Assembly: GCA_002435745.1 (NCBI GenBank)
Contig: DIWT01000004.1
Coordinates: 19,096-83,095, forward strand
Source: a bacterium UBP15_UBA6099
GTDB lineage: Bacteria; UBP15; UBA6099
Direction: 5' to 3'
DNA length: 64,000 nucleotides
This document shows positions 2,946-21,409 of the stretch, one piece after another. The notes under the pieces are model-generated. The model was given only the letters and a program-made list of their open reading frames with translations. It did no database searches and was not told the DNA's origin. The translations under genes were made by a program, and so were the position numbers. How positions within the stretch are numbered: position 1 is the stretch's first letter; every line of letters begins with the position of its first letter.

Positions 2946-3773
2946 ATGTCTGTCGTAAACACCAACATTTCCGGTCTGATAGGACTGAACAATCTGAGGC
3001 TGACAAACCTCGGATTGCAGACGTCGCTTGAAAGGCTGTCGTCGGGGCTGAGAATCAATCACGCCTCGGACGACCCCAGCGGTCTTGCCATCGCCAAGGG
3101 GATGGAAGCGCAGATAGGCGGCATCCGCACCGCCGTGCAGAACGCCGAGGACGGGATCAACCTGATCCGCACCGCCGACGGCTCTCTGAGCGAGACGCAC
3201 GACATCCTGCTTAGGATGCGAGACCTCGCGGTGCGCGCGGCCAACGAAGCCACGCTCACTCCCGCGGATCTCAACAGGCTTCACAACGAGTTTGTAAGCC
3301 TGATCGCGGAGATCGACCGCAAGTCGGATGCCGTCACTTTCAACACGAAAGTTCTGTTCGACGGCACTTTCGCAGGAGGAGAGGTGCTTCAGGTCGGCCC
3401 GGACAACGGCGCTACTTTCCAACTAACCGTGTCCATTCCTGACCTTGATTCAACAGGGCTGGGGATCAACGCCGCGTCGCTGTCGCAGGTGGCAAACGCC
3501 CAAGCCGCCATCGACTCTGTCAACAGCGCCATCAACCAGATATCCGACGTGCGCGCGAACCTCGGCATACAGGAACGCCGCCTCGGCCACATCATCGACG
3601 ACCTGAAAGCGGCCGATATAAACATCTCCGCCGCCAAGAGCCGCATCTACGACGCGGACATGGCAGTCGAGATAAGCGAGTTCACCCGCCTGCAGATACT
3701 CCAGCAGAGCGGCACGGCGATACTCGCTCAGGCCAATGCGCAGCCTCAGAGCGTGCTGCAACTTCTGAAATAA
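2946..3773 (+). CDS. Flagellin (275 aa), paralogue 1
   Basis: Conserved flagellin N-terminus (LERLSSGLRINHASDDPSGLAIA) and C-terminus (DADMAVEISEFTRLQILQQSGTAILAQANAQPQSVLQLL). SD and ATG are present. Confidence 0.95.
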   Translation: MSVVNTNISGLIGLNNLRLTNLGLQTSLERLSSGLRINHASDDPSGLAIAKGMEAQIGGIRTAVQNAEDGINLIRTADGSLSETHDILLRMRDLAVRAANEATLTPADLNRLHNEFVSLIAEIDRKSDAVTFNTKVLFDGTFAGGEVLQVGPDNGATFQLTVSIPDLDSTGLGINAASLSQVANAQAAIDSVNSAINQISDVRANLGIQERRLGHIIDDLKAADINISAAKSRIYDADMAVEISEFTRLQILQQSGTAILAQANAQPQSVLQLLK

Positions 3774-3803
3774 AGATATAAGCATCTAATCGGAATTAAC
3801 TTC

Positions 3804-3838
3804 AAGCGCCTCCTTCGCAGGGGGCGCTTTTTTCTTTT
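3804..3838 (+). terminator. Rho-independent terminator after flagellin 1
   Basis: AGCGCCTCC-TTCGCA-GGGGGCGCT stem-loop followed by TTTTTTCTTTTT. Confidence 0.75.
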
Positions 3839-3901
3839 TACGCGCGCGGCAGGCCGGACGCGCATCTCTTTTTTGATCGATTGTTTATTTTGTCGCTTCG
3901 C

Positions 3902-3928
3902 TAAAGGCAGTGGCGATTTTGTCGATAT
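3902..3928 (+). promoter_or_regulatory. Sigma-28-type promoter of flagellin 2
   Basis: TAAA (3902-3905), 15-nt spacer, GTCGATAT (3921-3928). Confidence 0.6.
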
Positions 3929-3946
3929 ATAAAATGTTCGAAATGT

Positions 3947-3962
3947 CGATAATGGATTATCG
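3947..3962 (+). promoter_or_regulatory. 5'-leader hairpin with GGA loop
   Basis: CGATAA-TGGA-TTATCG: a 6-bp perfect stem with loop UGGA. The SD GGAGG is at 3974-3978. Confidence 0.5.
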
Positions 3963-3985
3963 GCGGAAAACATGGAGGTGTAATT

Positions 3986-4813
3986 ATGTCGGTAGTAAAC
4001 ACAAACATTTCCGGTCTGATAGGGCTGAACAACCTGAGGCTGACCAACCTCGGGTTGCAGACATCTTTGGAGAGGCTTTCGTCCGGGCTGAGGATAAATC
4101 ACGCGTCGGACGACCCCAGCGGACTTGCTATAGCAAAGGGCATGGAGGCGCAGATCGGCGGCATCCGCACCGCCGTGCAGAACGCCGAGGACGGGATTAA
4201 CCTGATCCGAACGGCAGACGGCTCGCTCAGCGAAACGCAGGACATCCTTTTCAGGATGCGCGACCTCGCGGTGCGAGCGGCAAACGAGGCCACGCTCACT
4301 TCGGCGGACCTGACGAGGCTCAACAACGAGTTCAACAGCCTCATGGACGAAATTGATCGCAAGTCGGACGCCGTTACGTTTAACACCAAGGGGCTGTTCG
4401 ACGGCACTTTCGCAGCAGGACAGGTCCTTCAGGTCGGCCCTGACAACGGAGCCACTTTCCAGTTGACTGTGTCCATCCCCGATCTCGACGCCGCCGGACT
4501 CGGAATCAATACGGCTTCTGTGGGAGTGGTGGCAAACGCTCAGTCGGCGATCGACTACATAAACAGCGCGATCAATCAAGTGTCCGACGTGCGCGCCAAT
4601 CTAGGCATTCAGGAACGCCGCCTCGGCCACATCATCGACGACCTGAAAGCCGCAGACATCAACATCTCCGCCGCCAAGAGCCGCATCTACGACGCGGACA
4701 TGGCAGTCGAGATAAGCGAGTTCACCCGCCTGCAGATACTGCAGCAGAGCGGCACGGCGATACTCGCTCAGGCAAACGCTCAGCCGCAGAGCGTGTTGCA
4801 ACTGCTTCAGTAG
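3986..4813 (+). CDS. Flagellin (275 aa), paralogue 2
   Basis: Same conserved termini as paralogue 1; ends LLQ instead of LLK. Confidence 0.95.
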   Translation: MSVVNTNISGLIGLNNLRLTNLGLQTSLERLSSGLRINHASDDPSGLAIAKGMEAQIGGIRTAVQNAEDGINLIRTADGSLSETQDILFRMRDLAVRAANEATLTSADLTRLNNEFNSLMDEIDRKSDAVTFNTKGLFDGTFAAGQVLQVGPDNGATFQLTVSIPDLDAAGLGINTASVGVVANAQSAIDYINSAINQVSDVRANLGIQERRLGHIIDDLKAADINISAAKSRIYDADMAVEISEFTRLQILQQSGTAILAQANAQPQSVLQLLQ

Positions 4814-4843
4814 CGCCGCCTTTCAATAAAAAGATATTTATTA

Positions 4844-4880
4844 AGCGCCTCCTTTTAAGGGGGCGCTTTTTTGCTTTTTT
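4844..4880 (+). terminator. Rho-independent terminator after flagellin 2
   Basis: AGCGCCTCC-TTTTAA-GGGGGCGCT stem-loop followed by TTTTTTGCTTTTTT. Confidence 0.75.
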
Positions 4881-4947
4881 CAAGGTTTTCTATCCGAGTC
4901 GGCGAGAAACGCGGGATGGCAGCGGCTCCTGATTTTTTCGCCGCGTA

Positions 4948-4974
4948 TAAAGTTATTTTTTTTTATGTCGATAA
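4948..4974 (+). promoter_or_regulatory. Sigma-28-type promoter of flagellin 3
   Basis: TAAA (4948-4951), 15-nt spacer, GTCGATAA (4967-4974). Confidence 0.6.
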
Positions 4975-4987
4975 AAAACATATAAAA

Positions 4988-5007
4988 GTCGATCACGGAT
5001 GATCGAC
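4988..5007 (+). promoter_or_regulatory. 5'-leader hairpin with GGA loop
   Basis: GTCGATC-ACGGAT-GATCGAC: a 7-bp perfect stem with a loop containing GGA. The SD GGAGG is at 5018-5022. Confidence 0.5.
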
Positions 5008-5029
5008 TCTACAACATGGAGGTGTAATT

Positions 5030-5857
5030 ATGTCGGTAGTAAACACAAACATTTCCGGTCTGATAGGACTGAACAATCTGAGGCTGACGAACCTCGGATT
5101 GCAGACGTCGCTTGAAAGGCTGTCGTCGGGGCTGAGAATCAATCACGCCTCAGACGACCCCAGCGGACTTGCCATCGCCAAAGGGATGGAGGCGCAGATC
5201 GGCGGCATCCGCACAGCAGTGCAGAACGCCGAGGACGGGATCAACCTGATCCGCACCGCCGACGGCTCTCTGAGCGAGACGCACGACATCCTGATGAGGA
5301 TGCGAGACCTCGCGGTGCGCGCGGCTAACGAGGCAACGCTCACATCCGCCGACCTGACGAGGCTCAACAACGAGTTCAACAGCCTCATGGCCGAGATCGA
5401 CCGCAAGTCGGACGCCGTCACGTTCAACACGAAAGTTCTGTTTGACGGCACGTTTTCCGCCGGACAGGTGCTTCAGATCGGTCCGGACAACGGAGCCACT
5501 TTCCAGTTGACCGTGCAGATTAACGACCTCGATTCCACAGGTCTCGGAATCAACACGGCTTCAGTGGGAGTGGTCGCAAACGCCCAGTCGGCGATCGACT
5601 ACATCAACAGCGCCATCAACCAGATATCCGACGTGCGCGCGAACCTCGGCATACAGGAACGCCGCCTCGGCCACATCATCGACGACCTGAAAGCGGCCGA
5701 TATAAACATCTCCGCCGCCAAGAGCCGCATCTACGACGCGGACATGGCAGTCGAGATAAGCGAGTTCACCCGCCTGCAGATACTCCAGCAGAGCGGCACG
5801 GCGATACTCGCTCAGGCAAACGCTCAGCCGCAGAGCGTGCTCCAGCTTCTTAAGTAA
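5030..5857 (+). CDS. Flagellin (275 aa), paralogue 3 (mosaic of 1 and 2)
   Basis: Same conserved termini. The central residues alternate between paralogue-1-like and paralogue-2-like blocks. Confidence 0.95.
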   Translation: MSVVNTNISGLIGLNNLRLTNLGLQTSLERLSSGLRINHASDDPSGLAIAKGMEAQIGGIRTAVQNAEDGINLIRTADGSLSETHDILMRMRDLAVRAANEATLTSADLTRLNNEFNSLMAEIDRKSDAVTFNTKVLFDGTFSAGQVLQIGPDNGATFQLTVQINDLDSTGLGINTASVGVVANAQSAIDYINSAINQISDVRANLGIQERRLGHIIDDLKAADINISAAKSRIYDADMAVEISEFTRLQILQQSGTAILAQANAQPQSVLQLLK

Positions 5858-5942: not shown

Positions 5943-7898
5943 TTATCTTTCGTTCACTGCGAATTGAAGCCCTTTGAGACGTTTGCGGAGCGCCGCCATC
6001 TGGCGCGCGTGCGCCTCCGAACAGTTTATCTTTATGTCCGCGCCTTTGCGGGAAAGAGATTCGAGCATCCTGCCGAATGCCTCAGAATCCAGACGCGCCA
6101 AAGGCGCAAGGTTTATGTGAACAGCCTTGACGGCTATCTTCTTTTCGTTGAGCGTGTTAATCAGTCTGCGCATGGTTTTCTCTTTTACAGAGCCGCGAAG
6201 GTAAACCGAAAGCTCCGCCTCTCCGCCTCTGTTTTCGAGGAAAGCCCATGCTTTGCGGAGTTTAAGGAGGGCAGTGGCGCGGGCGGCGGAACACGCGGCG
6301 GCGGCGACCTCAGCCGGCTCCATCCTGAACCGGGTGACTATCGCTCGCGGGTTGTGGGGATGGAACTCCCTCTCGTATCTCATCCGCGCCGCGCTCGCCA
6401 TGAGCCAGACCGCCGAGTTGGCTATGAAATGCGCCGGGTTTCGCGCCCCGAACTTTTCGGCGAACATCGCCTCTATGCGTTCAGCTTTCTCTTTCATCTG
6501 TTTTTCCGGGGCGAGCCATTTAAGGGCGGTCAGCGCGTGACGGTATGCTTTGCATCTGCGAACGGCGGTTTCATATCTCGCCGCCATCATCGGGTCTCCG
6601 CTCTTGTAATGAGGGGAATTCAGCCCCTGAATCATGGCCTCGCCGACCCTGAGTATGGACGGGCCAAGCTCGCGGAACTCGCGGGCGAACGCTTCTTTAG
6701 TCGTCACCGCGCTTTCCTCCCGCGTGAAGTGCGGGTGCTTGAACCACAGCATGTGTTGCCCGTGCCATTCCTCATACGGCACGTCGTCCAGCAGTAGCCC
6801 TTGCTCCTTGTATTCGAGGTAGAGTCTAGTCTGCGGCAGGGGGCCGAGCTGCATGAACTGCGTGAAGTCCGGCTTCAGGCTTATCGCGAAATCGATGTCC
6901 TCGTTGATGCTCTCTTTGTCGTGATGTTCAAGGAAAAGGATGGACGATGCCAGCACGAATATCCCGTTCGCGCGGAGTTCGGCGATGAGCGCCTGAACGT
7001 CGATTCCTTTGGTTTTCTCGAACAGGTTCCGCTTGGACTCGACGCCTATCCACACGTAGTTGACGCCCAGCGCCATCATGTTGTCCACGCCGAACGCCGT
7101 TATCGCCTCTGCGGACGAGAAAACGCTGAAGTTGAACGGCCGGTTGTGCTCGCGCATGAGCGCCAGCAGTTCCATCGCTCTGTCTTTGTGAAGGAGAAAG
7201 TTCTCGTCCATCACGAAGAAGTCGTTTGTCTTAAGCTCGTCCGCGAGCCGCACGCACACGTCGAATATGTCTTTGCCCGTTTTCAGGAACGGGGTGTATT
7301 CCTTGTCGTAGAAGTGGGACGTGCAGCAGAACCGGCAGGCGTTCGGGCAGCCAACGCCGGGCACTAGCACCGCGCCCTGTTGCGTGAACGGAAGCCCGAG
7401 AATCCTTTTGTGGTCCGCGGCGGGCATCGCCGGGTGCTTTATCGGCGCGTTCATGTCCTCTCCCAGCAGATTCCTCAGCTTGCTGATTCCCTCTCCGGGC
7501 AGAACATGGTCGCAGTCGATCAAAGTCTCGATGTCGGGGATTCTCGAACCGTGGCCTCCGAGGATTATTTTCGTCTGCGGCGAAACCTCTCTGATTATCT
7601 CCGCCATCCTTCGCGCTTTCACGAAGTTCGGGGCGATGAAGGAAATGCCCACGTAGTCGTAGCCTTTGGCAAGCTCCTTGCGAAACTGTTTTATCGATGG
7701 GAAGTCGAGCACAGTGGTGGGAGTGGACAGGTTCTCCGCGATGAAATAGAGGCCGAAACTCCTGTGATTGTATCTGAGCGAGAAAATGCCTTGCTCGCGG
7801 GTCACCTGATTGTGGAACAGTTCGAGTTTATTTTCCTTGCGGCCATAGGCGTCGTCTACGCCGAACGGCCTGAATACCGATGTAAGCAGTAATTTCAT
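5943..7898 (-). CDS. B12-binding-domain radical SAM protein with a ~180-aa C-terminal extension (STAS-like?)
   Basis: The N-terminal region has a cobalamin-binding-like pattern (YDYVGISFIAPNF...KIILGGHG), followed by the radical SAM cluster motif GVGCPNACRFCC (CxxxCxxC). Total length is 651 aa. Confidence 0.8.
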   Translation of the reverse strand: MKLLLTSVFRPFGVDDAYGRKENKLELFHNQVTREQGIFSLRYNHRSFGLYFIAENLSTPTTVLDFPSIKQFRKELAKGYDYVGISFIAPNFVKARRMAEIIREVSPQTKIILGGHGSRIPDIETLIDCDHVLPGEGISKLRNLLGEDMNAPIKHPAMPAADHKRILGLPFTQQGAVLVPGVGCPNACRFCCTSHFYDKEYTPFLKTGKDIFDVCVRLADELKTNDFFVMDENFLLHKDRAMELLALMREHNRPFNFSVFSSAEAITAFGVDNMMALGVNYVWIGVESKRNLFEKTKGIDVQALIAELRANGIFVLASSILFLEHHDKESINEDIDFAISLKPDFTQFMQLGPLPQTRLYLEYKEQGLLLDDVPYEEWHGQHMLWFKHPHFTREESAVTTKEAFAREFRELGPSILRVGEAMIQGLNSPHYKSGDPMMAARYETAVRRCKAYRHALTALKWLAPEKQMKEKAERIEAMFAEKFGARNPAHFIANSAVWLMASAARMRYEREFHPHNPRAIVTRFRMEPAEVAAAACSAARATALLKLRKAWAFLENRGGEAELSVYLRGSVKEKTMRRLINTLNEKKIAVKAVHINLAPLARLDSEAFGRMLESLSRKGADIKINCSEAHARQMAALRKRLKGLQFAVNER

Positions 7899-8128: not shown

Positions 8129-8168
8129 TGGCACCTAATCTGAATCAGGCTTTTCATACCCAGCCGCG

Positions 8169-8750
8169 ATGGGGAGTGTAGTTTTGAAAAAATATTCTAA
8201 AGAAAAATATGGCAATACGTTGCTTCAAATCGAAGTGTTTATACCAAAGAGATTGACAAATCTAGGTAAGCTTGTCGAACTTCTTGAAAACATGCTTGAT
8301 TTCAGAAGAGCGAAAGAAGATCTGATTTGTCGAGCAAATGAAATATTTGAGCAGACAGAATGGGGCAATGAAGGAATAAAGAATATAAAACAGGCTAAAA
8401 ATAGAATTAAACAGATAGAAAAATGCATTCATGGATATTCTATTTATGAGGTTGACGGGGCTTTCGAGACTTCATGCGACATGAAGACCAGCAAAATAAG
8501 AAAATCGGATGTGAGGATTTGTGAAGAAAGAACAATGGTTGTTAGAATGCTTGCATACGCCGATCCAACCGAGGAGGAAAAGAAGGATAACGTTGATTTT
8601 TTCAATACGAGAAGCGTTGTCGACGCGCTTTTAGTTGCAAATGAATATTTGGCATTTAAGATCGCAAGCGATGTTGCTGAGGAGGATGAGATTTGGGTAA
8701 CAGCAAGTAAAGTATGGTCAAGTATCTGGAAAAAACATAGCGATGACTAA
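8169..8750 (+). CDS. Hypothetical protein (193 aa), first gene of the AT-rich island
   Basis: This is the only long ORF in the interval, and its codon usage matches the island. No motif recognised. An alternative TTG start at 8184 lies 7 nt after GGGGAG. Confidence 0.55.
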   Translation: MGSVVLKKYSKEKYGNTLLQIEVFIPKRLTNLGKLVELLENMLDFRRAKEDLICRANEIFEQTEWGNEGIKNIKQAKNRIKQIEKCIHGYSIYEVDGAFETSCDMKTSKIRKSDVRICEERTMVVRMLAYADPTEEEKKDNVDFFNTRSVVDALLVANEYLAFKIASDVAEEDEIWVTASKVWSSIWKKHSDD

Positions 8751-8931
8751 AATACTGGAGATTGGAGAGTATGACATAAATTGAATAGTGGGCGGCGCAT
8801 GGCTGATTTCACAATGGATTTAGTATCATTCGGAATAATTTAAAGACATTGACAAAGAATCGATTAATGTCTTAAATTTTAAGACAGAATAAATGTATGA
8901 AAAATGAAATATAATATAATGGGGGGCTAAA

Positions 8932-9078
8932 ATGTTTGAGGACGATAAGGGATTGATTAACAATAATGAAATCGAAAATGATACACTGGAATTGGAATGG
9001 GAAGTTGCTGTTCCAGTTGATAGGTCAAGAGTAAGCCACATGTATTGTTTTAAAAACTGTTCCGTTAACTCTAATTAG
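8932..9078 (+). CDS. Candidate RiPP precursor peptide (48 aa), not in the supplied ORF track
   Basis: The ATG is preceded by GGGGGG with a 5-nt spacer. Translation: MFEDDKGLINNNEIENDTLELEWEVAVPVDRSRVSHMYCFKNCSVNSN. It has an acidic N-terminal half and a C-terminal CxxxC. It sits 111 nt upstream of the RRE-rSAM-SPASM gene on the same strand. Confidence 0.55.
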   Translation: MFEDDKGLINNNEIENDTLELEWEVAVPVDRSRVSHMYCFKNCSVNSN

Positions 9079-9189
9079 AATGGTTAGGGAGAACATCAAA
9101 CTGAAATCTTCTTGAAGGAGTGATATACTTTTTTCGAATTTAAATATGAAGGAAAAGAAGTAGCAAAACAGACAGTTAGAACAACTTTA

Positions 9190-10503
9190 TTGTTACATCA
9201 CTCTTATGCTGTTCCTCAAAATGTATCAGTTGTTAGAAAAGACGATGTTATTTTGGTAATTAATCCACAAACAGCTAATTGGCTGGTGCTAAACGATATT
9301 GAATTAGAAGTATATTTTTTGCTCGCAGAAGGAATAACAATAAAAAAGGTCATAGAGAAGATTTCTAAAAAAAGCAACTGTAATCAACATGCCTCTTCAA
9401 TTGTCAAAAGATTTCTTGCTCAATCGGAAGCTAAACAATTCAACAAAACTGTTGGGACTGTGTTCGCAGATTCATTTGGGATGTATGTTTTTCTAACATT
9501 TGACTGCAATCTGAAGTGTAGTCACTGTTTTCTATACGATAAACCACGACTCGGAGATCCTCTTGAAATTGAACAATGGAAAAGAATACTCATTGATTTT
9601 CAGCTTGCCGGAGGAGAAAAGATAACATTATCTGGAGGGGAACCGACACTTTTTGATTCCTTTGCAGATATCCTTGTTTTTGCACATGGCATTGGATTGA
9701 AAGTGACATTATTGACAAATGGCATGATTTTGCATTCGGAACTACTAGAATTATATTCTAACAATGTAGATGAACTCCAGATTAGCCTCGATGGACCGGA
9801 AGAGATTAGTCACGAGATGATAAGGGGAAAGGGAACTTACTTTAAGACATACTCAAACATAAAAAAAGCGTTAGACAAGGGCGTTATGGTTACTATTGCC
9901 ATGACGCCAACTTTTGAGACATTTCCATTTTTCGAAGAGCATTTTGTTCGATTTGCGAAATCTTTACTTAATGAATACTCAAATGTAAATGTTAAATTGA
10001 CACAAAAGCTTCTTCGATCAAAAATGTCGATTTATTCGGATACGGATATGAATAAATATTACGCAAAAGGAAATAGACTGATTAATAATCTTTATGAGGA
10101 TTATTCCATCAATGCGTTTTATTTAGACCACCCTGTGAATACAATACGACGCAATTGTGGTTATGGCGAGATATCAGTTATTCCAGACGGAACCGTGTAT
10201 TTATGTAGTAGGATTTGTGATTTGAAACCAGTTGCAAATTTAAAGGAATTAAAAATGGTAAACGTGATACAAATTGCACGAGAGGAGAAAGAGAGGGCTT
10301 CAGTGGAGAATATCATCCCATGTCAGCATTGTTGTTTAAGGTATATCTGTTCTGGTGGTTGCAGAATAGACGACATCCCTGATTTTTGTAATGGACAATT
10401 GACTGTAGATTGTCCTGAAGAAAGGAAGCAACAAATATTTGACATGATGATAGAATCAAACAATATGTATTTCAATATAGAGTATAAACCAAATAATGAA
10501 TGA
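9190..10503 (+). CDS. Radical SAM/SPASM peptide-maturase-like enzyme with a PqqD-like (RRE) N-terminal domain
   Basis: CxxxCxxC motif (FDCNLKCSHCF) and GGEPTL. C-terminal auxiliary-cluster cysteines are present (CGYGEISVIPDGTVYLC...PCQHCCLRYICSGGC). The N-terminal ~90 aa fit the PqqD/RRE pattern (VILVINPQTANWLVLNDIELEVYFLL..GITIKKVIEKI). The start is TTG; there is no in-frame ATG upstream. Confidence 0.8.
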   Translation: MLHHSYAVPQNVSVVRKDDVILVINPQTANWLVLNDIELEVYFLLAEGITIKKVIEKISKKSNCNQHASSIVKRFLAQSEAKQFNKTVGTVFADSFGMYVFLTFDCNLKCSHCFLYDKPRLGDPLEIEQWKRILIDFQLAGGEKITLSGGEPTLFDSFADILVFAHGIGLKVTLLTNGMILHSELLELYSNNVDELQISLDGPEEISHEMIRGKGTYFKTYSNIKKALDKGVMVTIAMTPTFETFPFFEEHFVRFAKSLLNEYSNVNVKLTQKLLRSKMSIYSDTDMNKYYAKGNRLINNLYEDYSINAFYLDHPVNTIRRNCGYGEISVIPDGTVYLCSRICDLKPVANLKELKMVNVIQIAREEKERASVENIIPCQHCCLRYICSGGCRIDDIPDFCNGQLTVDCPEERKQQIFDMMIESNNMYFNIEYKPNNE

Positions 10504-12898
10504 AGAACATAAACATAAAAGCATATTAATTATATTTATAAATTGGGCTCATCAGCCTAGGATCAGGATAGTCCAGCGAACATATGCTGCTAGAAACAGC
10601 CCCTCTCCCAATGCAATAAAAGATATTGATCATATCAATCCATCATTGATTGCGCAATTTCCTGACGATCTTGACAAAAAGTTGTTGGGTTGGCTGATGG
10701 TGCCTCACAAAGCATTGCTTCCAGACCCGGTCAGGGTCAATGATATACCTGTTGGAATAATCAATGAATACATAAAGCGCAAGCGTGCCTATTATTCTCC
10801 TTCAGGAAAAAACAAATCCTTAAAAAGAATATATTCTGTAGATATTGACATCCCTAATGTTGGTGTATATTCTTGGAGTATCAATGAACGAAATCTAATT
10901 TTGAGTAGTAGTTTTATTGGCGACGATATGGTTATCATTGAGAAACATCCTATTATGATAATCTCAAGAACAGAAAACAATAATTATGTTGGTATTCCAT
11001 ACGCAAGGGTAAAACACAACGATGGTTATGTGCCTTTGTTTTCTTTTAGTAAGGAAGCGACATTAACACTGCTAAGTCAATTAATTAAATGTGCAAGATC
11101 AGAAGATTATCTTTTGTGGTATTTTCCTGACAACATGTATGAATTGTCATTATCGATTGAAACACTTATAAACGATGGTTGGGATATCGAATATGATGAC
11201 AAGAAAAGAGTTGTAAAAACGACTCGATGGAATATGAAAGCAAATGATAAAACCGATTGGTTTGAAATTGATGGAGTTGCTCAATATAATGACAGCACAT
11301 TGTCTATATCAGAAATGCTTGCGGCATTGAGAAAGAGGTCGGCTTTTGTTGCGTTAGAATCAGGGGGTATAGCGGTTCTTCCTTCAGATTGGATAAAAAA
11401 TATTATTCCAATGGAACCATATCTCTCTGCAAATATGAGAATATCCAGATCATTCGTTGGATTAATAAGTGCGTCAACAAGCATCAATTCAGAGAATAGT
11501 ATTAGTTACAAAATAGCAAGAAAACTTATCTCAGCGCAAAACAATTATGAACCGGTATTATGGGATGGTAAATGTCTGAAACCATATCAGAATTGTGCTG
11601 TAAATTGGCTTAATGAAGCATATAAACAAAACATTGGATGTCTTCTTGCGGATGAAATGGGATTGGGTAAAACCATTGTTACTCTTGCTCACCTGTCTTT
11701 ATTTAAGGGAGATCATCTTATAGTAGCTCCAGCTTCAATCATATCTAATTGGATTCATGAAATTGAAGTAAATTTACCTAACGCAATGTGGTCTCTATGG
11801 GGATCAAAAGAAGAACAATCTGATTCTTCAAGAACCAGCATATATTTAATGAGCTATCAAACCATGCTTAGAAACATAGATGCGATAACTATGAAGCGTT
11901 ATATGGTAGCAGTATTCGACGAATCACAGTATTTAAAAAACTCATTTTCGATGACGGCGAATGCAGCAAGGAAAGTTAAATGCAATCAAGCTATCGCATT
12001 AACAGGAACACCAATTGAGAATAATGTATCGGAGTTGTGGAGTCATTTGAACCTTGTTGCGCCGAATTGGCACAATAATCGAAGGAATTTTGAGACTATT
12101 TGTAGCGAAGCAACCAAGAGTGATGCCTCGTTGATTCATCTTAGAAAAGCTTTGTCTCCATTTATATTGAGAAGAACTAGAAGTGATGTTTTAAAAGATT
12201 TACCTGATTTGAATATCGAGATAATAAGATGTGAGTTGAGTGAAGACCATCTAAAGCTCTACAAAAAATGGATGATATCAGCAAGAAAGGCTTTTTCTGA
12301 CCCTGAGCATAGAACAAGAAAAAAAGGTGCGGTGTTAGAAGTGTTGTTAAGATTGAGGCAAATCTGTTGTGACCCGCTTTTGATAACACAAGACTATGAT
12401 GGTGATGTTGTTGTGTCAGGAAAAACTGAAGCAATATTAAATGCTATTATTGTGATTTCTGAATATGACAAATTATTAGTGTTTTCACAGTTTTCATCAT
12501 ATTTGGAGTTATTAAAAACCTTACTAGATAAGCATTTTGTGAATAATTTACTATTGATCGGAACTACTGGCAACAGAGATGATGTGATAAAAGAATTTAA
12601 AGAATCAGAAAACACAAATGTATTATTAGCAAGTCTTAAAGTTGGAGGCGTCGGATTGAACTTAATAGAAGCTGCTAACGTAGTATTATGTGATCCATGG
12701 TGGAATCCTGCTGCAGAGATGCAAGCATGGTCAAGAGCATATAGAATGGGGCAAAAGAAAAATGTAAATGTTATAAAATTTGTGTGTAAAAACACTATAG
12801 AAGAACGCATATTGGAGCTTCAAGAAAAAAAAGCTACACTGAATCAATTTGTGCCAGAAAAAATATCAAGCAAAGAAATTATTGAATTATTGAAATAA
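10496..12898 (+). CDS. SNF2-family ATPase/helicase (800 aa) with an uncharacterised ~350-aa N-terminal region
   Basis: SNF2_N motifs (LKPYQ, LLADEMGLGKT, DESQYLKN, ALTGTPIENN) and helicase-C motifs (SLKVGGVGLNL, DPWWNPAAEMQAWSRAYRMGQ). The ATG overlaps the rSAM stop by 8 nt (ATGAATGA). Confidence 0.9.
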   Translation: MNEEHKHKSILIIFINWAHQPRIRIVQRTYAARNSPSPNAIKDIDHINPSLIAQFPDDLDKKLLGWLMVPHKALLPDPVRVNDIPVGIINEYIKRKRAYYSPSGKNKSLKRIYSVDIDIPNVGVYSWSINERNLILSSSFIGDDMVIIEKHPIMIISRTENNNYVGIPYARVKHNDGYVPLFSFSKEATLTLLSQLIKCARSEDYLLWYFPDNMYELSLSIETLINDGWDIEYDDKKRVVKTTRWNMKANDKTDWFEIDGVAQYNDSTLSISEMLAALRKRSAFVALESGGIAVLPSDWIKNIIPMEPYLSANMRISRSFVGLISASTSINSENSISYKIARKLISAQNNYEPVLWDGKCLKPYQNCAVNWLNEAYKQNIGCLLADEMGLGKTIVTLAHLSLFKGDHLIVAPASIISNWIHEIEVNLPNAMWSLWGSKEEQSDSSRTSIYLMSYQTMLRNIDAITMKRYMVAVFDESQYLKNSFSMTANAARKVKCNQAIALTGTPIENNVSELWSHLNLVAPNWHNNRRNFETICSEATKSDASLIHLRKALSPFILRRTRSDVLKDLPDLNIEIIRCELSEDHLKLYKKWMISARKAFSDPEHRTRKKGAVLEVLLRLRQICCDPLLITQDYDGDVVVSGKTEAILNAIIVISEYDKLLVFSQFSSYLELLKTLLDKHFVNNLLLIGTTGNRDDVIKEFKESENTNVLLASLKVGGVGLNLIEAANVVLCDPWWNPAAEMQAWSRAYRMGQKKNVNVIKFVCKNTIEERILELQEKKATLNQFVPEKISSKEIIELLK

Positions 12899-12899
12899 A

Positions 12900-13475
12900 T
12901 CATAGCGGTTTGTGCCAGTTTTTGTATATGCCGCCGTAAGCGCCGGTGTCGTAGAGGTGGGCGATGACGAGGGCGACGGCGTTTTTGAATCCGGCGTCGC
13001 CGGAGATTGCGAAAGCGAGCGGGCCTGTAGCAGCGGAATAGTAATAGACTACGGACGCATGGGCGTTGTTCGGGACGGATGGGGCGGATATGACCGCCGC
13101 CGGGTCGCCGGGGAGCACGATATTGATTTTTGCTCCGAGAGCTGACGCGATGAATTTTAGCAGGTCGGGTTCGAAGCCGCGCGCGACGCCGTATTCATCC
13201 CTGAAGCACATGGGAGGGCGTTCGCAGTCCACCGCCGCGGCGATGATGCCGGAAGCGCGAGCGGCGCGCAACGTCTCGGAGTCCCCTGCGGCCAGTTCGA
13301 CATCCGCTGCGAGAACGCTTTGCACGGGGTCTCTGGCGGTGGCGGCGGGAACGGTTTCCGAGGGGACGGCGGACGGATCTTGACCCCGGGGGCATCCGGA
13401 AATCAGGACGGCAACTGCCGCCATAACCGCCAGCGCCGACGCGCGTTTCAACCTGTTGTGTTTCGGTTCTATCAT
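12900..13475 (-). CDS. Lipoprotein with a short solute-binding-protein-like domain
   Basis: Signal peptide with lipobox (VLISGC). It resembles SBP_bac_3 (GFEPDLLKFIASALG), though the domain is short. Confidence 0.55.
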   Translation of the reverse strand: MIEPKHNRLKRASALAVMAAVAVLISGCPRGQDPSAVPSETVPAATARDPVQSVLAADVELAAGDSETLRAARASGIIAAAVDCERPPMCFRDEYGVARGFEPDLLKFIASALGAKINIVLPGDPAAVISAPSVPNNAHASVVYYYSAATGPLAFAISGDAGFKNAVALVIAHLYDTGAYGGIYKNWHKPL

Positions 13476-15913: not shown

Positions 15914-18484
15914 TCATTTATTAATTGACATGTTATAAAAAACACGACTGTCCTCGGCGCTTAGCACAGTATCGTAAAGGCCGATGTCTTCGCCTTCGTG
16001 CTTATTGACGCCTATATAAATTAGACTGGAATCTTCGTATCGTTTAAACTTATAGACAGCGTCATTCATCAATGCGCTATTGAATACTCCAAGGCTTACC
16101 AACAACTCGAACTCTTTCATAGTCAGGCCGGTTACTTTCTTGAACAAACCCGGCTCCAGTTGCGTGATGACATCCTTCAGACATCGCTCTCGATAATCGG
16201 TCAAATACATAAAGATTGGCAAACGCGTGGCGAACTTGATAAGTTTTTCCTGAATCTGCTTCCGCAAGCTTTTGTATTCCTTTTCCTCCTCGGTGAGCTT
16301 CTTCTTTTCCTTTGTGGAAAGCTCTTTGTCATTTGCTTCCTTTCTCGCCTTTTTCACGGCTTCCGACTTGTTGATAATAGTCTCGATGTCCTGATTGAGG
16401 TTGCGAAAGCCTTCAATTCTCATTAGCGCATCCATAGCGGCTTTGTTGCTCATGAGCCGTTTCAGGGCTTCGTTATCCACATTAACCAGCAAAGCGCTTT
16501 CCCAGCGCCTCGCCAAAAGAGTTGCTGTAGTTCCACTCATCGCCATATCCAGAATGCCTGCGGCATTGATCTCTTTCATTGAACTGCCGTCATAGGCTAA
16601 CACTGGAAGAAAGTTTATAAACTCCGCCACCTTCTTTTCGGGATTGGACTCATCGACATTCAGTCGGCAACTGTAATCGGCGATCTGCCGCAAAGCTCTG
16701 TCCGGCGCGAAATCAAAGACATAGCATTCCTCTTTAATGATTTGCTCCCGATTCGGCGCTGTGTTGTCGGGATTCCTGATTGACCAAGGTGATTGCACGC
16801 GGAAAGCAGCCTGAAAATAGGTCTCGGGACTGGACGAATTCCGCAACATGAGGATGCCGGTCCACGGCCTTACCGTGACTCCTGTGGTCAGTTTGCCGCA
16901 TGACAGGGTAATTGTTTTGGTTGCTAAGGGATCGTCCATGGCCTCCTGCACGGGCGGCAAAGCGGCAACGCCAATACCGGCGTCGCTTCCCGCCGCAACG
17001 ATTACTTCGTAATCGCGATAGAACTTATTCTGTTTCTTCGCCATAAGGTTGCGCATTGCGTGACACGAGGCAACACTGGGCAGAAACCAGAAGGTGTGCG
17101 ATAAAACATTCAGTAATCGCGCATCGGAAAACGGCATCGGCGGTTTTTGAGCGCCCAGTTTCAAGTTGTCAATATTTGTTGCCGAGAATGAGCCGCGTAT
17201 CAAATCAAGCCACTTCTGCACTTCATCCGTGTACGTAAATTTCGCCTTGTTTCCCGCCCCGGTAGCGGAAAAAAAAGTGTTAAGATCGAACTCATTGAAC
17301 TCGCCCTGCATGGCGATTTCGCGTATCGAATCGGGCAGTTGATAGGTCATTAACACCATTCGAGGAAGCGCCGCGTATGGATTGTCCCCGCCTGTCCATT
17401 CCTGCTTGGCCCGCTGCTCGTCCGAATACGTCCAGTTAAAAATCTGCTCCTCGATGAATTCGCCGGACGCAATGGCCCTAAACGGCGTGCCGGATAGATA
17501 GAGATATGCATTCGTGGTAATCGGCATAATCTCTTCGTCAAAATCCTCAATGCCGGCGCCTTCTCCAAACTCGATTTCTTTCTTGTCCTCCGCCGCAAAA
17601 AGCTCTCTGGCGTTTTCGCGCCACGCGCCGTAGTGATACTCGTCAAGGATGACACAATCCCAGTTGGTCTCATGCGCCCATTCATTCTTGGTCTTGAGCC
17701 CCCCGGTGCTTTTGTTCTTGCCAAGGTGATCCTGAAAAGAACCGAAACAGACGAAAGGCTTCTTCTTGTCCGCGTCTTCGTATGATAAACCGCCCGGCGA
17801 GATAAACTGCCACCCTTTGAAATCAATATGGCATTTCAAGTCTTCTTCCCATGCGTTCTGCACTGCGGGCTTGAAGGTCAGCACAAGAACCTTGCGCCAG
17901 TCCATTTTCTTAGCGAGCTGATAGGCGGCAAAGGTTTTGCCAAAGCGCATTTTAGCGTTCCATAGAAAGCGCGGCGACTTATCCTTGTTTTCCTTTCTGA
18001 AACTCTTGAAATAAGCGACGGTCTTTTCCACCGCCGCTTCCTGTTCCGGTCGCATCTTGAAATCAAGCGAACGGTTTTCCTCGTTCATTTCACCAGTTCT
18101 CAGAGCAATGACCGCCGCTTTTACCTGTTTTGCCGAACATTTGAACCATTCCCCTTTGGGATTTTTGACGCCGATGGCTCGTAAGCGACGGTGAACATCA
18201 TGGTCGGTGAAGACCGTGCCGTCATTGCGCATTGCGAATTCTTCAAGGACGATCCGATACGGCGGTTTTCCCGGCCTCAATGTCGGATATTGCTGTTCCA
18301 CGCGCGTCCGGGCGTCCGCTAATGTATAGCCGACTTTGAGCAATCCCGCGTATTGAGGATTTGTGTCCTCGTAGGCGTAGATGGTCGGTTTGGAATCCGG
18401 CCGCTGAGGGAAGAAATTATCAGGTTTCCTCGGCATTGTTTCCCAGCTTCTTTTTAGTTTTTGCGGGCGGAAGAAAGTTGTCAC
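15914..18484 (-). CDS. GIY-YIG (T5orf172-like) nuclease domain fused to an SF2 DEAD/DEAH-box helicase (putative restriction subunit)
   Basis: The N-terminus fits the GIY-YIG/T5orf172 pattern (TIYAYED...GLLKVGYT...R..Q...HDVHRRL...GEWFKC). Walker A is MRFGKTFAA and motif II is LDEYHYG. A more likely start is the ATG at 18436. Confidence 0.75.
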   Translation of the reverse strand: MTTFFRPQKLKRSWETMPRKPDNFFPQRPDSKPTIYAYEDTNPQYAGLLKVGYTLADARTRVEQQYPTLRPGKPPYRIVLEEFAMRNDGTVFTDHDVHRRLRAIGVKNPKGEWFKCSAKQVKAAVIALRTGEMNEENRSLDFKMRPEQEAAVEKTVAYFKSFRKENKDKSPRFLWNAKMRFGKTFAAYQLAKKMDWRKVLVLTFKPAVQNAWEEDLKCHIDFKGWQFISPGGLSYEDADKKKPFVCFGSFQDHLGKNKSTGGLKTKNEWAHETNWDCVILDEYHYGAWRENARELFAAEDKKEIEFGEGAGIEDFDEEIMPITTNAYLYLSGTPFRAIASGEFIEEQIFNWTYSDEQRAKQEWTGGDNPYAALPRMVLMTYQLPDSIREIAMQGEFNEFDLNTFFSATGAGNKAKFTYTDEVQKWLDLIRGSFSATNIDNLKLGAQKPPMPFSDARLLNVLSHTFWFLPSVASCHAMRNLMAKKQNKFYRDYEVIVAAGSDAGIGVAALPPVQEAMDDPLATKTITLSCGKLTTGVTVRPWTGILMLRNSSSPETYFQAAFRVQSPWSIRNPDNTAPNREQIIKEECYVFDFAPDRALRQIADYSCRLNVDESNPEKKVAEFINFLPVLAYDGSSMKEINAAGILDMAMSGTTATLLARRWESALLVNVDNEALKRLMSNKAAMDALMRIEGFRNLNQDIETIINKSEAVKKARKEANDKELSTKEKKKLTEEEKEYKSLRKQIQEKLIKFATRLPIFMYLTDYRERCLKDVITQLEPGLFKKVTGLTMKEFELLVSLGVFNSALMNDAVYKFKRYEDSSLIYIGVNKHEGEDIGLYDTVLSAEDSRVFYNMSINK

Positions 18485-19280
18485 CGGTCACCACGCCGCG
18501 TCCGGTTTTCCGCTCCAGTTCCAGCCTCGCCTTTTTTGCGATTCTTCCGCCTTTTCTGCCCGCCTGCGCATTTTCATCCATGCCGGTTGCTTCAACGCTC
18601 TCCGCAATCTGGCGGGTGGAAAGCTCCGCTAAAGCTGTAAAAATCAGTTCCGCCTCGCTCATGTGGTCGCGTAGGTTTTGAGTTTTGAGGTCCTTTATCT
18701 GCTTGTGTTTCTTGACCGAAACCCCGCTCCATTCTTTGTGAATTATATTGGTCAGAATGGCGTATTCGTCTTCGCCTTTAATCTCGTGGTCTTTCCAGTA
18801 ATCGGTGAGTTTATTGCGGGTTTCCTGCCCCATCATCCGCTGCTGAATCCATTTTTCGCTTCTGCCGCTCTGTTGCCAGTAGTCGCGCGCCCGGTCAAGG
18901 GATCGGGCCGGATCGCTCATGTCCTGAATGCGCTCGTAACCCGCTTTGGCAAGCCATAGCTTGATGGGTTCCGCTCTGGGACTGGGAACCGACTGTATGA
19001 TTCGCAGAAGAGCCTCCGGGCCGGCCGCGTCGGTCAGGTATTTTTTCCCGTCAGCGGCTTCCATTTTCAGTTGGTGACAATTTGTCACCGACTGATTTCC
19101 CTCTTTCTTGAGGCGTTCTTTCAACTTGTTCCAGTACTTCCGGGCAGTCTGATAATCCGGCTGCTGAATCAGCGCGGCGATGATATCCACAACGGAAAAC
19201 AACCATGTTTCTGTCTTTTCATCATAAATCCTGCGGATTTTAAAGTTTTCAAAAACCGCAAGCGCCTTTTCTTCATTCAT
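18420..19280 (-). CDS. Bro-N / DinD-like (DNA-damage-inducible protein D family) protein
   Basis: The N-terminal pattern FENFKIRRIYDEKTETWLFSVVDIIAAL and the overall 286-aa layout match my recollection of this family. It overlaps both neighbouring genes. Confidence 0.55.
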   Translation of the reverse strand: MNEEKALAVFENFKIRRIYDEKTETWLFSVVDIIAALIQQPDYQTARKYWNKLKERLKKEGNQSVTNCHQLKMEAADGKKYLTDAAGPEALLRIIQSVPSPRAEPIKLWLAKAGYERIQDMSDPARSLDRARDYWQQSGRSEKWIQQRMMGQETRNKLTDYWKDHEIKGEDEYAILTNIIHKEWSGVSVKKHKQIKDLKTQNLRDHMSEAELIFTALAELSTRQIAESVEATGMDENAQAGRKGGRIAKKARLELERKTGRGVVTGDNFLPPAKTKKKLGNNAEET

Positions 19281-20781
19281 TGTTAATCTCCATCGGTCGA
19301 ACTATTAAGTCAATAAAATCAATTTCGTCGTCTGACAAACCAAAATGAGCGAAGAGTTTTTCGTCTGTCCATATTTTTGACATAGGCAGAAGAGGCACAA
19401 ATGAAAATTTGTCCTTTGTGTTGTCCTGTGTGTTTTTGCGTAAGCCCACCAGAAACCGCAGAAACTTTGTTCTAAGATATTTGTCCAGATTTTTTGCGGC
19501 GCTTTCGGTTTCATAAGCTCCAACTACAATGTAGGTCTCGGTGCAAGCGCTGGATGGAGGCGCTATAATCGGCTTGCCCATTATCATTCGTGGATAATCG
19601 CGAGCTTCACCTCCTTCCCCGTATGCCTTAGAAATTAGAACCTTCCACAAATCCAGCAACTCCATTCCATTTTTGATGTCCGATTTTTCTATCCATCCGA
19701 CAGTTTTTGTTGCATACAATTTAATGTTGCCTTTTCCAGTAGGCCGGACAAATGTCGGGAGCCCAAATGGTTTTCGACTATAGATTTGTTCACTTATTGA
19801 TGTGTATTTCTTTTCTTTTACCTTTTCGAGAATCGAAATAGCCTTATTGAATCGAACAAATGAATCAAATTGATCCAAAGAGCGCTTCATCGTATCATCC
19901 ATGCCACTCATGCGTGTAGTTACTTCACATTGACCGCTGTAATCCCGCTCCCATAAAAAATAACATACACCGCCAATCACCTTGACGCCGGGGAAAACAT
20001 CAGATGCTATTGGATAGTCAACCAAATGAGAGATTCTGCGATCCTTTAGCATTGTATCGCGAAAAACATCCAGCCCTTTCCCACCGGCAAACCATCGGGA
20101 TGGGATAATCATTGACAAATATCTCGGTTCAAGTTTTTTAGCTTGTTCGACAAAATTGTGATAAATAGGAGATGAGCCTGTGCTATCTCCAGCATCACTC
20201 AACTGATACGGTGGATTACCTATAATTACATCAAATTTCATATTGAATATCGCCTCCGGATTTTCCGTGTGAATAAATTGATAGGCATGGGTTTCGAGTT
20301 CTTCGCCCCGCTCATAGCTTTCCTGACTGGCGCCGCAGAAAACGCAGCGCCCGTTTTCCCATGTGTGCTCCACTCGCTCAAAGCGAATATTCCCTTGCGG
20401 GTCGTCGAAAGTTTCACAGACGGAGTATTTTCCATTGGCCGTTTTGGAGCAGTAAACAGAACGGCGGGAAAGCAACGCGGTCAACTCAGTTATTGCCACG
20501 CCGAAGATCTGGTTCTTGAAGATGTGGTTGATTCGAGCCTGCCTGTCCGGGATTTTTTTTTCAAGCCCCGCATCCAACCGCCTTGCGATTTCGCGCGGAA
20601 ACACACCGGACTTACAGAACGGATCGAGAAACCGGGTGTTCTTATTGCCCCAGATTTCCGGAGGCAGCAAATCCAATATTTGATTAACCAATTGCGGCGG
20701 CGTGAACACTTCGTCGCTGCTCAGATTGGCCAGACAGGTCAGCACATCCGGGTTGTAGCTATTGCCTGTCAACATCGGCAA
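19273..20781 (-). CDS. Eco57I-type N6-adenine DNA methyltransferase
   Basis: AdoMet motif LDPFCKSGVF and catalytic motif IIGNPPYQ. The downstream pattern SPIYHNFVEQA...IIPSRWFAGGKGLD is typical of this family. Confidence 0.8.
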   Translation of the reverse strand: MPMLTGNSYNPDVLTCLANLSSDEVFTPPQLVNQILDLLPPEIWGNKNTRFLDPFCKSGVFPREIARRLDAGLEKKIPDRQARINHIFKNQIFGVAITELTALLSRRSVYCSKTANGKYSVCETFDDPQGNIRFERVEHTWENGRCVFCGASQESYERGEELETHAYQFIHTENPEAIFNMKFDVIIGNPPYQLSDAGDSTGSSPIYHNFVEQAKKLEPRYLSMIIPSRWFAGGKGLDVFRDTMLKDRRISHLVDYPIASDVFPGVKVIGGVCYFLWERDYSGQCEVTTRMSGMDDTMKRSLDQFDSFVRFNKAISILEKVKEKKYTSISEQIYSRKPFGLPTFVRPTGKGNIKLYATKTVGWIEKSDIKNGMELLDLWKVLISKAYGEGGEARDYPRMIMGKPIIAPPSSACTETYIVVGAYETESAAKNLDKYLRTKFLRFLVGLRKNTQDNTKDKFSFVPLLPMSKIWTDEKLFAHFGLSDDEIDFIDLIVRPMEINNE

Positions 20782-21409
20782 CCTCCAGAAAGTGCGTTAA
20801 CGGGTACTCTTTCACAGGCTCATTTAAGTATGCCTCGTTATTCTCATCGCTGAATATCATTAGTTGGTGTTGCTTGTCTACTAGAAACGAAAGCATGAAA
20901 TCGCGCCGCTTTAGCATGCTACCGTTGACCGGCGACCATTCAGAAAATATAATCGGTCGCGGATTGTTTCCCACGGTTTTCAGATCAAGCGCGTCTCCAT
21001 GAATAATATTGCGCTCAAGGATATATTTGACCGCATTCCGACATTCATTCCTTGCGCCGAATATAAAAAGGCGCGTGTAGTTCAGATCAAAGATGTCAAA
21101 AAGCCGGTTGCGACATTCCTGAACATTATCCTTAAGAATATCAATGCCGTATATGGAGGACACGGCAAGAACAGCATTCCTCTCGTACTCCAGTTGAATC
21201 TTTTCGTATCGGAATTCAACGACGCGCAATTTCCGTTCCAGAATTTCCGACAGAAAATTGCCCGTGCCGCATGCGGGTTCAAGAAACCGGGATTCGATCC
21301 TTTCTGTTTCCTGTTTCACCAGATCAAGCATGGCGTTGACTTCTCGTTTTCCAGTCAATACCTCGCCATGATCAGCGACCCTCTTCTTGGAGACAACTTG
21401 CTTTTCCAT
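20759..21409 (-). CDS. Short methyltransferase-like protein (AdoMet-binding motifs only, no NPPY)
   Basis: HGEVLTGKREVNAMLDLV (motif X-like), EPACGTGNFL (motif I), YGIDI and HGDAL are present. No (N/D)PP(Y/F) is found in the 216 aa. The gene overlaps the downstream MTase by 23 nt. Confidence 0.55.
   Translation of the reverse strand: MEKQVVSKKRVADHGEVLTGKREVNAMLDLVKQETERIESRFLEPACGTGNFLSEILERKLRVVEFRYEKIQLEYERNAVLAVSSIYGIDILKDNVQECRNRLFDIFDLNYTRLFIFGARNECRNAVKYILERNIIHGDALDLKTVGNNPRPIIFSEWSPVNGSMLKRRDFMLSFLVDKQHQLMIFSDENNEAYLNEPVKEYPLTHFLEVADVDRQ

Follow-up and report, generated by a model that had tools for sequence, protein, structure and literature searches.

A conserved cassette of a short peptide gene, a radical-SAM/SPASM enzyme and a SNF2-family ATPase in diverse bacteria and an archaeon

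A 64,000-nucleotide stretch of DNA from the bacterium UBP15_UBA6099 (assembly GCA_002435745.1, contig DIWT01000004.1, positions 19,096 to 83,095 of the forward strand), referred to here in its full length as the window, contains a low-GC island in which four genes are transcribed rightwards: orf193, a 48-codon open reading frame (ORF) at 8932-9078, a gene for a radical S-adenosylmethionine (radical-SAM) enzyme with a SPASM-type region, and a gene for a SNF2-family ATPase (Table 1). An earlier note, made from the sequence of the window alone, had proposed that the short ORF encodes the substrate of the adjacent enzyme and had placed the pair among the sactipeptides and ranthipeptides. We show here that the peptide gene is conserved far beyond this genome and that it travels with both the enzyme gene and the SNF2 gene. 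The island has one and the same sequence in five independent assemblies of methanogenic, toluene-degrading enrichment samples. In L226 (JGI 3300001567; L numbers denote the collected loci), which represents the same locus, the island sequence differs and the radical-SAM gene is split into ORFs of 234 and 151 aa, which may reflect either a disrupted population variant or an assembly error.

The ORF on the forward strand, its ATG at 8932 and its translation, MFEDDKGLINNNEIENDTLELEWEVAVPVDRSRVSHMYCFKNCSVNSN, all match the sequence as the earlier note gave them. The same is true of the Shine-Dalgarno-like element, which can be read directly (GGGGGG at 8921-8926, then the five nucleotides CTAAA, then the ATG), of the CxxxC pair (C39 and C43 of the 48-aa peptide), and of the spacing, the ORF stopping 111 nt 5' of TTG 9190, the first canonical start of the radical-SAM gene. 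An AGGAGG sequence is present at the equivalent place in L001 and L081 and is absent from the Bacteroidales homologues; Shine-Dalgarno sequences are rarely used by Bacteroidales. The description of the ORF as unannotated holds for the gene track supplied with the window and not universally, as other assemblies of the same locus do call it. Two further features of the ORF carry no weight. The acidity of the leader had been offered as a supporting argument, and it fails across the family, whose leaders carry net charges anywhere from -9 to +8; what is conserved in the leader is instead a strand motif, h-x-h-x-W, and an arginine, Arg33 in the window peptide. ORF length was also rejected as evidence, because about 14% of 439-nt sequences simulated at island composition with a Markov-1 model contain an ATG-initiated ORF of at least 48 codons (P ~0.14) and the length therefore proves nothing by itself.

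The evidence that this is a gene comes from searches that begin with the enzyme. Fourteen loci were picked through enzyme homology alone (radical-SAM-first loci), with contexts taken from species genomes, from contigs of the closest proteins and from four taxonomically distant members. Each of the 14 has a small ORF that is read in the same direction as the radical-SAM gene and stops 20-150 nt upstream of it, and in all 14 the encoded peptide terminates in YCFKxCxxNxN followed directly by the stop codon. The earlier note had proposed looking upstream of homologous maturases for a conserved small ORF; one is present throughout, with invariant cysteine spacing. The last 32 residues of the 14 peptides, anchored at the C-terminus, align without gaps and share a tryptophan at -26 (W23 of the window peptide), an arginine at -16 and the core. 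The codons for the invariant residues vary synonymously among these loci (TAT/TAC, TGT/TGC, TTT/TTC, AAA/AAG and AAT/AAC), and the combination of invariant residues with synonymous codon changes indicates that selection acts on the protein. Family members are 33-53 aa long and have a common geometry of h-x-h-x-W, nine residues, R, four residues and YCFKxCxxNxN-COOH, and the h-x-h-x-W motif is kept in most of 68 unique cassette peptides.

A chance origin of the ORF, with the real gene being an antisense 71-aa ORF or no gene being present, draws some plausibility from the 14% frequency of ORFs of this length in comparable random sequences, and is refuted by the conservation of the ORF, with synonymous variation, in 14/14 loci. 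The antisense ORF (8826-9041) does exist and is of implausible composition, as had been noted; tblastn detects no counterpart of it at the homologous loci, where stop codons interrupt its frames. We therefore consider a chance ORF to be almost certainly the wrong explanation; on comparison of these sequences, ORF 8932-9078 is a real and widely conserved gene.

The hosts include Bacteroidales (Bacteroides and Prevotella), Campylobacteraceae, Clostridia (Crassaminicella indica and Anaerosolibacter carboniphilus), Nitrospiraceae and the archaeon Methanofastidiosum. The peptide gene is commonly overlooked. Annotators passed over it in all four of the further radical-SAM-first loci that were checked, and the NCBI and JGI gene calls omit it at five loci, L230-L233 and L087, whose hosts are Methanofastidiosum, Anaerosolibacter, Nitrospiraceae, Prevotella communis and Crassaminicella indica. 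A 34-aa peptide of the family is present on at least 1000 contigs, including those of Phocaeicola vulgatus and Bacteroides ovatus, where it is labelled 'hypothetical protein'. No model in Pfam, NCBIfam or PHROGs matches the core motif YCFKxCxxNxN-COOH.

The association also holds when the search begins with the peptide. A degenerate DNA pattern encoding the core was used to search public metagenome contigs, and 111 of the 120 matches are genuine family members. Downstream sequence of at least 1.5 kb is available for 83 loci, and in 75 of them a radical-SAM gene lies no more than 400 nt away, in the same orientation. When at least 4 kb is required, 57 loci remain; the radical-SAM gene is present in 52 of these and a SNF2 gene comes after it in 51, and SNF2 likewise follows in every radical-SAM-first locus that extends far enough. 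The two genes commonly overlap by 1-17 nt, with overlap or near-abutment seen in the window and in L083, L084, L173, L203 and L138. The flanks add no further component: 203 flanking ORFs from 61 loci form 153 clusters, and the sole recurrent gene among them encodes an M42 peptidase, which is a marker of a shared Bacteroidales insertion site, so a search for an additional conserved cassette gene ended without a candidate. No transporter, leader peptidase or other protease, or immunity gene is present in the cassette or conserved in the flanks of the 61 loci, and no tailoring gene (peptidase, oxidoreductase or other) was found in the cassette. Gene order and sequence conservation together indicate that peptide, radical-SAM and SNF2 genes are one conserved unit. 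The trio behaves as a mobile three-gene cassette, as seen in the low-GC island of the window and in the integrases that adjoin the cassette at L084 and L086. A plasmid search returned a single distant match, in Treponema.

Table 1. Features of the cassette and its surroundings in the window
Feature	Coordinates	Strand	Remarks
Low-GC island, 4.8 kb	8140..12900	.	~35% GC, host ~57% GC; composition profile and ORF list
orf193, 193 aa	8169..8750	+	Within island, outside conserved module
Promoter-like TTGACA, 18 nt, TAAATT	8849..8878	+	Consensus scan; weak
Shine-Dalgarno-like GGGGGG	8921..8926	+	5 nt 5' of peptide ATG
Peptide gene, 48 aa, precursor-type	8932..9078	+	Family member ending YCFKxCxxNxN-COOH
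Leader strand motif LELEW (h-x-h-x-W), presumed RRE-binding strand	8986..9000	+	C-terminally anchored alignment of 14 radical-SAM-first peptides
Core YCFKNCSVNSN, presumed modification site	9043..9075	+	C39, C43 and Asn46 invariant; Asn48 C-terminal
Radical-SAM/SPASM peptide-maturase-like gene	9190..10503	+	First canonical start TTG 9190; frame open from 9124
N-terminal RRE-like domain, residues 35-103	9226..9432	+	AlphaFold2 model: three strands then three helices
CNLKCSHC, CxxxCxxC motif for radical-SAM [4Fe-4S] cluster	9505..9528	+	Invariant C128, C132, C135
SPASM-type Cys-rich region, auxiliary Fe-S clusters	10156..10413	+	Seven invariant Cys in family alignment
SNF2-family ATPase, 800 aa	10496..12898	+	Start overlaps radical-SAM stop by 8 nt
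SNF2 helicase core, residues 361-782	11576..12841	+	Intact DEMGLGKT, DESQ, TGTP, QAWSRAYRMGQ motifs
Type IIG-like restriction/helicase, PDC-S13, split type II/IIG methyltransferase genes	15914..21409	-	Lower GC; 3 kb from cassette

Two elements of the island lie outside this unit. The orf193 product has no match in Pfam, NCBIfam, PADLOC or PHROG, and we rejected the gene as a fourth component since it has no tblastn match at any other cassette locus and is private to the window. Promoter-like sites number 31 in the AT-rich region against 21 expected, so that the one preceding the peptide gene carries no significance by itself.

The enzyme has the architecture of a peptide maturase. Pfam recognizes Radical_SAM and Fer4_12 in the window protein, and the family comprises approximately 94 members at E<1e-43, after which similarity drops sharply. 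The invariant cysteines of the SPASM region are C345, C361, C400, C403, C409, C413 and C430 (residue numbers count from 9124), and Pfam SPASM matches are obtained with the homologues P0002, P0003, P0005, P0007, P0019, P0040 and P0060. An AlphaFold2 model made with the family alignment as input has a mean predicted local distance difference test (pLDDT) score of 89.8 and a predicted template modelling score (pTM) of 0.85. Its N-terminal residues 35-103 have pLDDT >90, contain an invariant tryptophan (W53) and resemble an RRE, the recognition element found in maturases of RiPPs, peptides that the ribosome makes and that are modified after translation. Foldseek comparison with the PDB gives SkfB, CteB, SuiB, anSME and ChlB as the top matches, in near full-length alignments, and SkfB and CteB are also the nearest solved relatives by sequence. 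The best NCBIfam model is that of the sactipeptide maturase StsB, which aligns over nearly the full length and scores 110.2 bits where the cut-off is 625; none of the curated maturase cut-offs (StsB, SkfB, AlbA, PapB, PqqE, MftC and others) is reached. A small ORF directly upstream of a maturase occupies the canonical precursor position in sactipeptide and ranthipeptide loci. Taken with the two-way synteny (14/14 and 75/83 loci), the architecture of the enzyme and its nearest structures (SkfB, CteB and SuiB), the proposal that the peptide is the substrate of the adjacent RRE-like/radical-SAM/SPASM enzyme is strongly supported by these comparisons.

A more complicated picture is seen at the 5' end of the radical-SAM gene. 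The frame is open from 9124 and contains no ATG, GTG or TTG before TTG 9190, while homologues start approximately eight residues earlier than this codon allows. A strong GAAGGAG is present at 9114-9120 within the interval 9079-9189, with no in-frame start after it and 66 nt of open frame upstream of TTG 9190. A sequencing error or frameshift at a run of six T residues was entertained as the cause of the absent start and rejected, because five independent assemblies are identical.

If the enzyme is a maturase, its product could be a peptide-derived cofactor, as with PqqA/PqqE and MftA/MftC, in which the C-terminus would be excised or decarboxylated to a small molecule serving the helicase or host metabolism. 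PqqE and the mycofactocin maturase are indeed among the NCBIfam and PDB matches, and conservation of the C-terminus is strict as far as the stop codon; the scores to PqqE and MftC, however, are far below the cut-offs, and the cassette lacks a peptidase, an oxidoreductase or any other tailoring gene, which makes this explanation highly improbable. Conversely, the peptide might never be modified, acting as a small protein (for example an antitoxin-like inhibitor or adaptor of SNF2) while the radical-SAM enzyme acts on the helicase, on a nucleotide in the manner of viperin, or on nucleic acid. The conserved stretch does extend well beyond the cysteines (W, R, Y, F, K and N), as expected for a binding interface, the radical-SAM core matches the pVip models of PADLOC, and phages carry the peptide gene alone (see below). 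However, the pVip matches cover the generic radical-SAM core only, the enzyme has the RRE-like and SPASM layout of a maturase with peptide-modifying enzymes rather than viperins as its closest structures, and the small ORF sits where a precursor gene would be expected. We judge an unmodified peptide to be unlikely.

The third gene encodes an ATPase in two parts. The helicase core matches the PADLOC models of DpdE and ZorD, and the match is limited to the core. The N-terminal domain (residues 1-360, approximately 350 residues) is conserved only within this SNF2 family: a word-indexed homologue search with residues 1-355 gave no match, a profile search of the PDB gave nothing at E<0.3, and the AlphaFold2 model is poor, with a pLDDT of 63.

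The constant presence of this gene bears on how the peptide is classified. A classical secreted RiPP, either a bacteriocin or a signal of the sactipeptide or ranthipeptide type that is matured by the radical-SAM enzyme and exported, with SNF2 an unrelated neighbour, would account for the precursor-maturase layout, for the two core cysteines and for an enzyme that resembles SkfB, CteB and the StsB family, and a sister clade (L005) has an ordinary multi-enzyme RiPP layout. SNF2 is nevertheless an obligate partner: it comes after the radical-SAM gene in 51 of the 52 peptide-first loci that can be assessed, often overlapping its stop codon, and the arrangement is kept between hosts as far apart as Bacteroidota and an archaeon. 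The flanks contain no conserved gene for an ABC transporter, a C39 peptidase or immunity, and the peptide has no Gly-Gly-type cleavage motif and a C-terminal part that is invariant in length over 32 residues. We regard a secreted product as quite unlikely. The natural-product framing of the earlier note is not supported in the form in which it was put: the StsB score is far short of its cut-off, protease, transporter and immunity genes are lacking, and that note had missed both the obligate, often overlapping SNF2 partner and the defence-gene neighbourhoods described below.

Relatives of the enzyme are associated with other peptides. L011:5702-10255 (Oribacterium) and L012:5812-9450 (Veillonella) belong to a sister radical-SAM/SPASM clade that has a different cysteine-containing peptide, MFK...VCQRSQCRTTHKRKDC, present in two tandem copies in L011. 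The gene order is peptide and radical-SAM followed by a UvrA-like ABC ATPase, with a methyltransferase also in L011, and these loci are a second case of a peptide and radical-SAM enzyme together with a DNA-binding NTPase. Further radical-SAM relatives (L008:2691-5156, L005:7287-9619 and L007-L010) lack SNF2 and have other Cys-rich peptides upstream (GGGCYMKCEVN..., YCHGWCC... and GCFAQCC...); L008 adjoins a TmtA-like defence protein, and L005 has a second radical-SAM gene and an APH-type kinase.

The cassette is found recurrently among defence genes and mobile elements. In Crassaminicella indica it lies directly after the RADAR genes for RdrA and RdrB. In raw counts, 8 of 131 dereplicated flank proteins match RdrB and several match OLD/ABC-type defence ATPases and HEC-02A; an RdrB-like gene adjoins the cassette in 23 loci, corresponding to 8 of 31 SNF2 clusters (75% identity), or to 8 of approximately 19 clusters with enough sequence. 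Several Bacteroidales lineages have a tightly packed arrangement of peptide, radical-SAM, SNF2, RdrB-like gene and small ORF, from which RdrA is absent. The RdrB-like gene lies directly 3' of SNF2 and is followed by an ORF of 123-144 aa, again with no RdrA, in L211:5091-7715, L203, L113, L138, L173 and L004:9603-12251; PycC-like, RdrA and RdrB genes lie beside the cassette in L197 and L148, and RdrA and RdrB in L087. The RdrB-like genes that follow SNF2 in the absence of RdrA may represent an RdrA-independent variant of RADAR.

Searches against PADLOC-DB v2 find no complete known system in the island (pVip, Zorya, Dpd, DISARM or RADAR), the matches being to generic cores with no partner genes in the island, and no match to the peptide. 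A restriction-type cluster lies near the cassette, in which the candidate defence protein PDC-S13 is recognized with an E value of 4.5e-116. Two other features of the window lie on the opposite side of the island. A leftwards-transcribed gene at 5943-7898 encodes a 651-aa B12-binding radical-SAM protein with weak HpnJ/BchE-like matches; it has host GC content, abuts the island and has no relation to the cassette. At 2946-5857 there are three ORFs of 275 aa in tandem, nearly identical to one another and differing mainly in a central variable region; these are presumably flagellins, judged by eye.

A different arrangement is seen in phages. The core DNA pattern gives 16 matches in IMG/VR, 14 of which are true peptide genes that retain the leader motif, and the retrieved loci of these copies contain neither radical-SAM nor SNF2 genes. 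A radical-SAM gene is beside the peptide in 0 of 11 viral loci, compared with 75 of 83 metagenome loci (p=1e-9). The genes nearby encode portal, large terminase, tape-measure and tail sheath proteins and a DnaB-like helicase, and the carriers of these orphan copies are therefore real phages. Some of the phage peptides are near-identical to Bacteroides cassette peptides (...SSFDTERVGAMYCFKRCDVNQN). Orphan loci include L088-L103 from IMG/VR and the phage-like metagenome contigs L142, L165, L169, L185, L193, L194 and L202. In six phage-like loci (L096:9070-9930 on the reverse strand, L165:4976-5836 on the forward strand, and L090, L103, L169 and L194) the orphan gene abuts one for a 286-292-aa protein with weak similarity to Peptidase_U32 (E ~1e-3) that falls in no PHROG family and may be an alternative peptide-modifying enzyme. 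The sequenced phages of INPHARED contain no match to either the peptide or the radical-SAM enzyme. Mimicry by a phage of the labile component of a defence system is known from pseudo-ToxI-mediated escape from ToxIN; here too it is the small component alone that the phages carry, and its recognition features are preserved. The parallel is one of pure analogy, interference by orphan peptides being hypothetical, and it differs in that some phage copies adjoin their own U32-like protein.

A plausible scenario is that the leader strand, LELEW in the window peptide, docks on the predicted N-terminal RRE-like domain of the enzyme, which would then crosslink the C-terminal core YCFKNCSVNSN, probably through its two cysteines. 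By analogy with the sactipeptide and ranthipeptide synthases, the most plausible chemistry would be the formation of Cys-derived thioethers to the conserved asparagine or to neighbouring residues. The modified peptide probably remains in the cell, because the unit is a bare set of three genes with no protease, exporter or immunity gene, and there it would probably partner the SNF2 ATPase, whether as its ligand, as a regulator or as a labile inhibitor. The whole is most likely an intracellular peptide-radical-SAM-SNF2 conflict module that lies outside the curated libraries searched. It would most likely be directed against phages or other mobile DNA, in view of its location in defence islands, the operons with RdrB in many Bacteroidales and the orphan peptides of phages, which may supply or compete for the peptide and so interfere with the module by mimicry. 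That the ORF is a precursor gene whose product is modified by the radical-SAM enzyme and acts with SNF2 in a mobile conflict module is in our estimation rather probable. We advance more tentatively, and with less than even confidence, the fuller proposal of an undescribed anti-phage or anti-mobile-DNA system in which a crosslinked intracellular peptide controls a SNF2 motor, is coupled in many Bacteroidales to RdrB in place of RdrA, and is countered by phage decoys.

Several points weigh against this interpretation of the cassette as a conflict module built on a modified peptide. The start of the radical-SAM gene is uncertain, TTG 9190 being weak, lacking a Shine-Dalgarno sequence and having no canonical start upstream. 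Neither Pfam PqqD (E<=1) nor an hhalign comparison with a relative that contains PqqD covers the RRE-like domain, so that the assignment comes solely from predicted topology. Adjacency to defence islands is suggestive rather than proof. The orphan copies could serve phage biology that has nothing to do with the cassette, six of them adjoining the U32-like protein. The window copy has neither RdrB nor a recognizable effector domain, and the SNF2 N-terminal domain matches nothing solved. Action of a crosslinked peptide on the helicase is purely conjectural, and the case as a whole is built on sequence comparison and predicted structure.

Comparison with known systems provides a context for the cassette. 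The SkfA/SkfB, CteA/CteB (SCIFF) and StsA/StsB (streptosactin) pairs likewise have a short Cys-containing precursor directly upstream of a radical-SAM/SPASM enzyme on the same strand, whereas the present module scores far below the family cut-offs, has its own core motif and a SNF2 partner, and lacks export, protease and immunity genes. FxSxx-COOH peptides occur with FxsB-type radical-SAM/SPASM enzymes in conflict systems centred on an NTPase (Kaur, Burroughs, Iyer and Aravind 2020, PMC7159879). Those systems share with ours a small peptide whose extreme C-terminus is conserved, a radical-SAM/SPASM enzyme and an NTPase-based predicted conflict system; they differ in the peptide motif, in being vWA-MoxR/VMAP ternary systems where SNF2 is found here, and in their taxa, the present module occurring in gut Bacteroidales, Clostridia, Campylobacteraceae, Nitrospiraceae and Methanofastidiosum. 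Defence islands also contain the lanthiphages, class I lanthipeptide clusters with anti-phage activity (Shomar et al. 2024, bioRxiv 10.1101/2024.06.26.600839). They too are a RiPP-type peptide and maturase unit among defence systems, and set a precedent for phage defence by RiPP chemistry, but they use LanB/LanC chemistry, occur in Actinobacteria and have no helicase, and the anti-phage activity of the present module is predicted from its genes. Among defence SNF2 ATPases are ZorD of Zorya, DpdE of Dpd and DrmD of DISARM, the first two being those whose models match our helicase core, and the RdrB of RADAR is repeatedly adjacent to the module or in one operon with it; ZorABC, DpdABC, DrmABC and RdrA are nonetheless absent from the window, and the SNF2 N-terminal domain is particular to the module's own family. 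Neither the searched literature nor PADLOC contains a system that pairs SNF2 with a radical-SAM enzyme and a peptide, and in the searchable literature we found no paper with the motif or linking radical-SAM/SPASM with SNF2, RdrB with radical SAM, or radical-SAM-modified RiPPs with helicases. There is a substantial chance that, at the level of the system, this is a new type of defence module.

For annotation, the gene can be recognized by its signature of h-x-h-x-W, nine residues, R, four residues and YCFKxCxxNxN-stop. The module occurs commonly in prevalent species of the human gut, and its three genes make a compact system for asking how a modified peptide addresses a SNF2 motor. The arrangements in Bacteroidales suggest a possible RdrA-independent route to the RADAR deaminase, and the orphan precursors are a candidate class of phage counter-measures. 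If the proposed interpretation is correct, RiPP-type chemistry, which is usually studied for secreted antibiotics, would work inside the cell in a helicase-based conflict module, and a RiPP-like molecule would serve as an internal immune regulator in abundant human-gut Bacteroides, with a distribution that reaches the Archaea.

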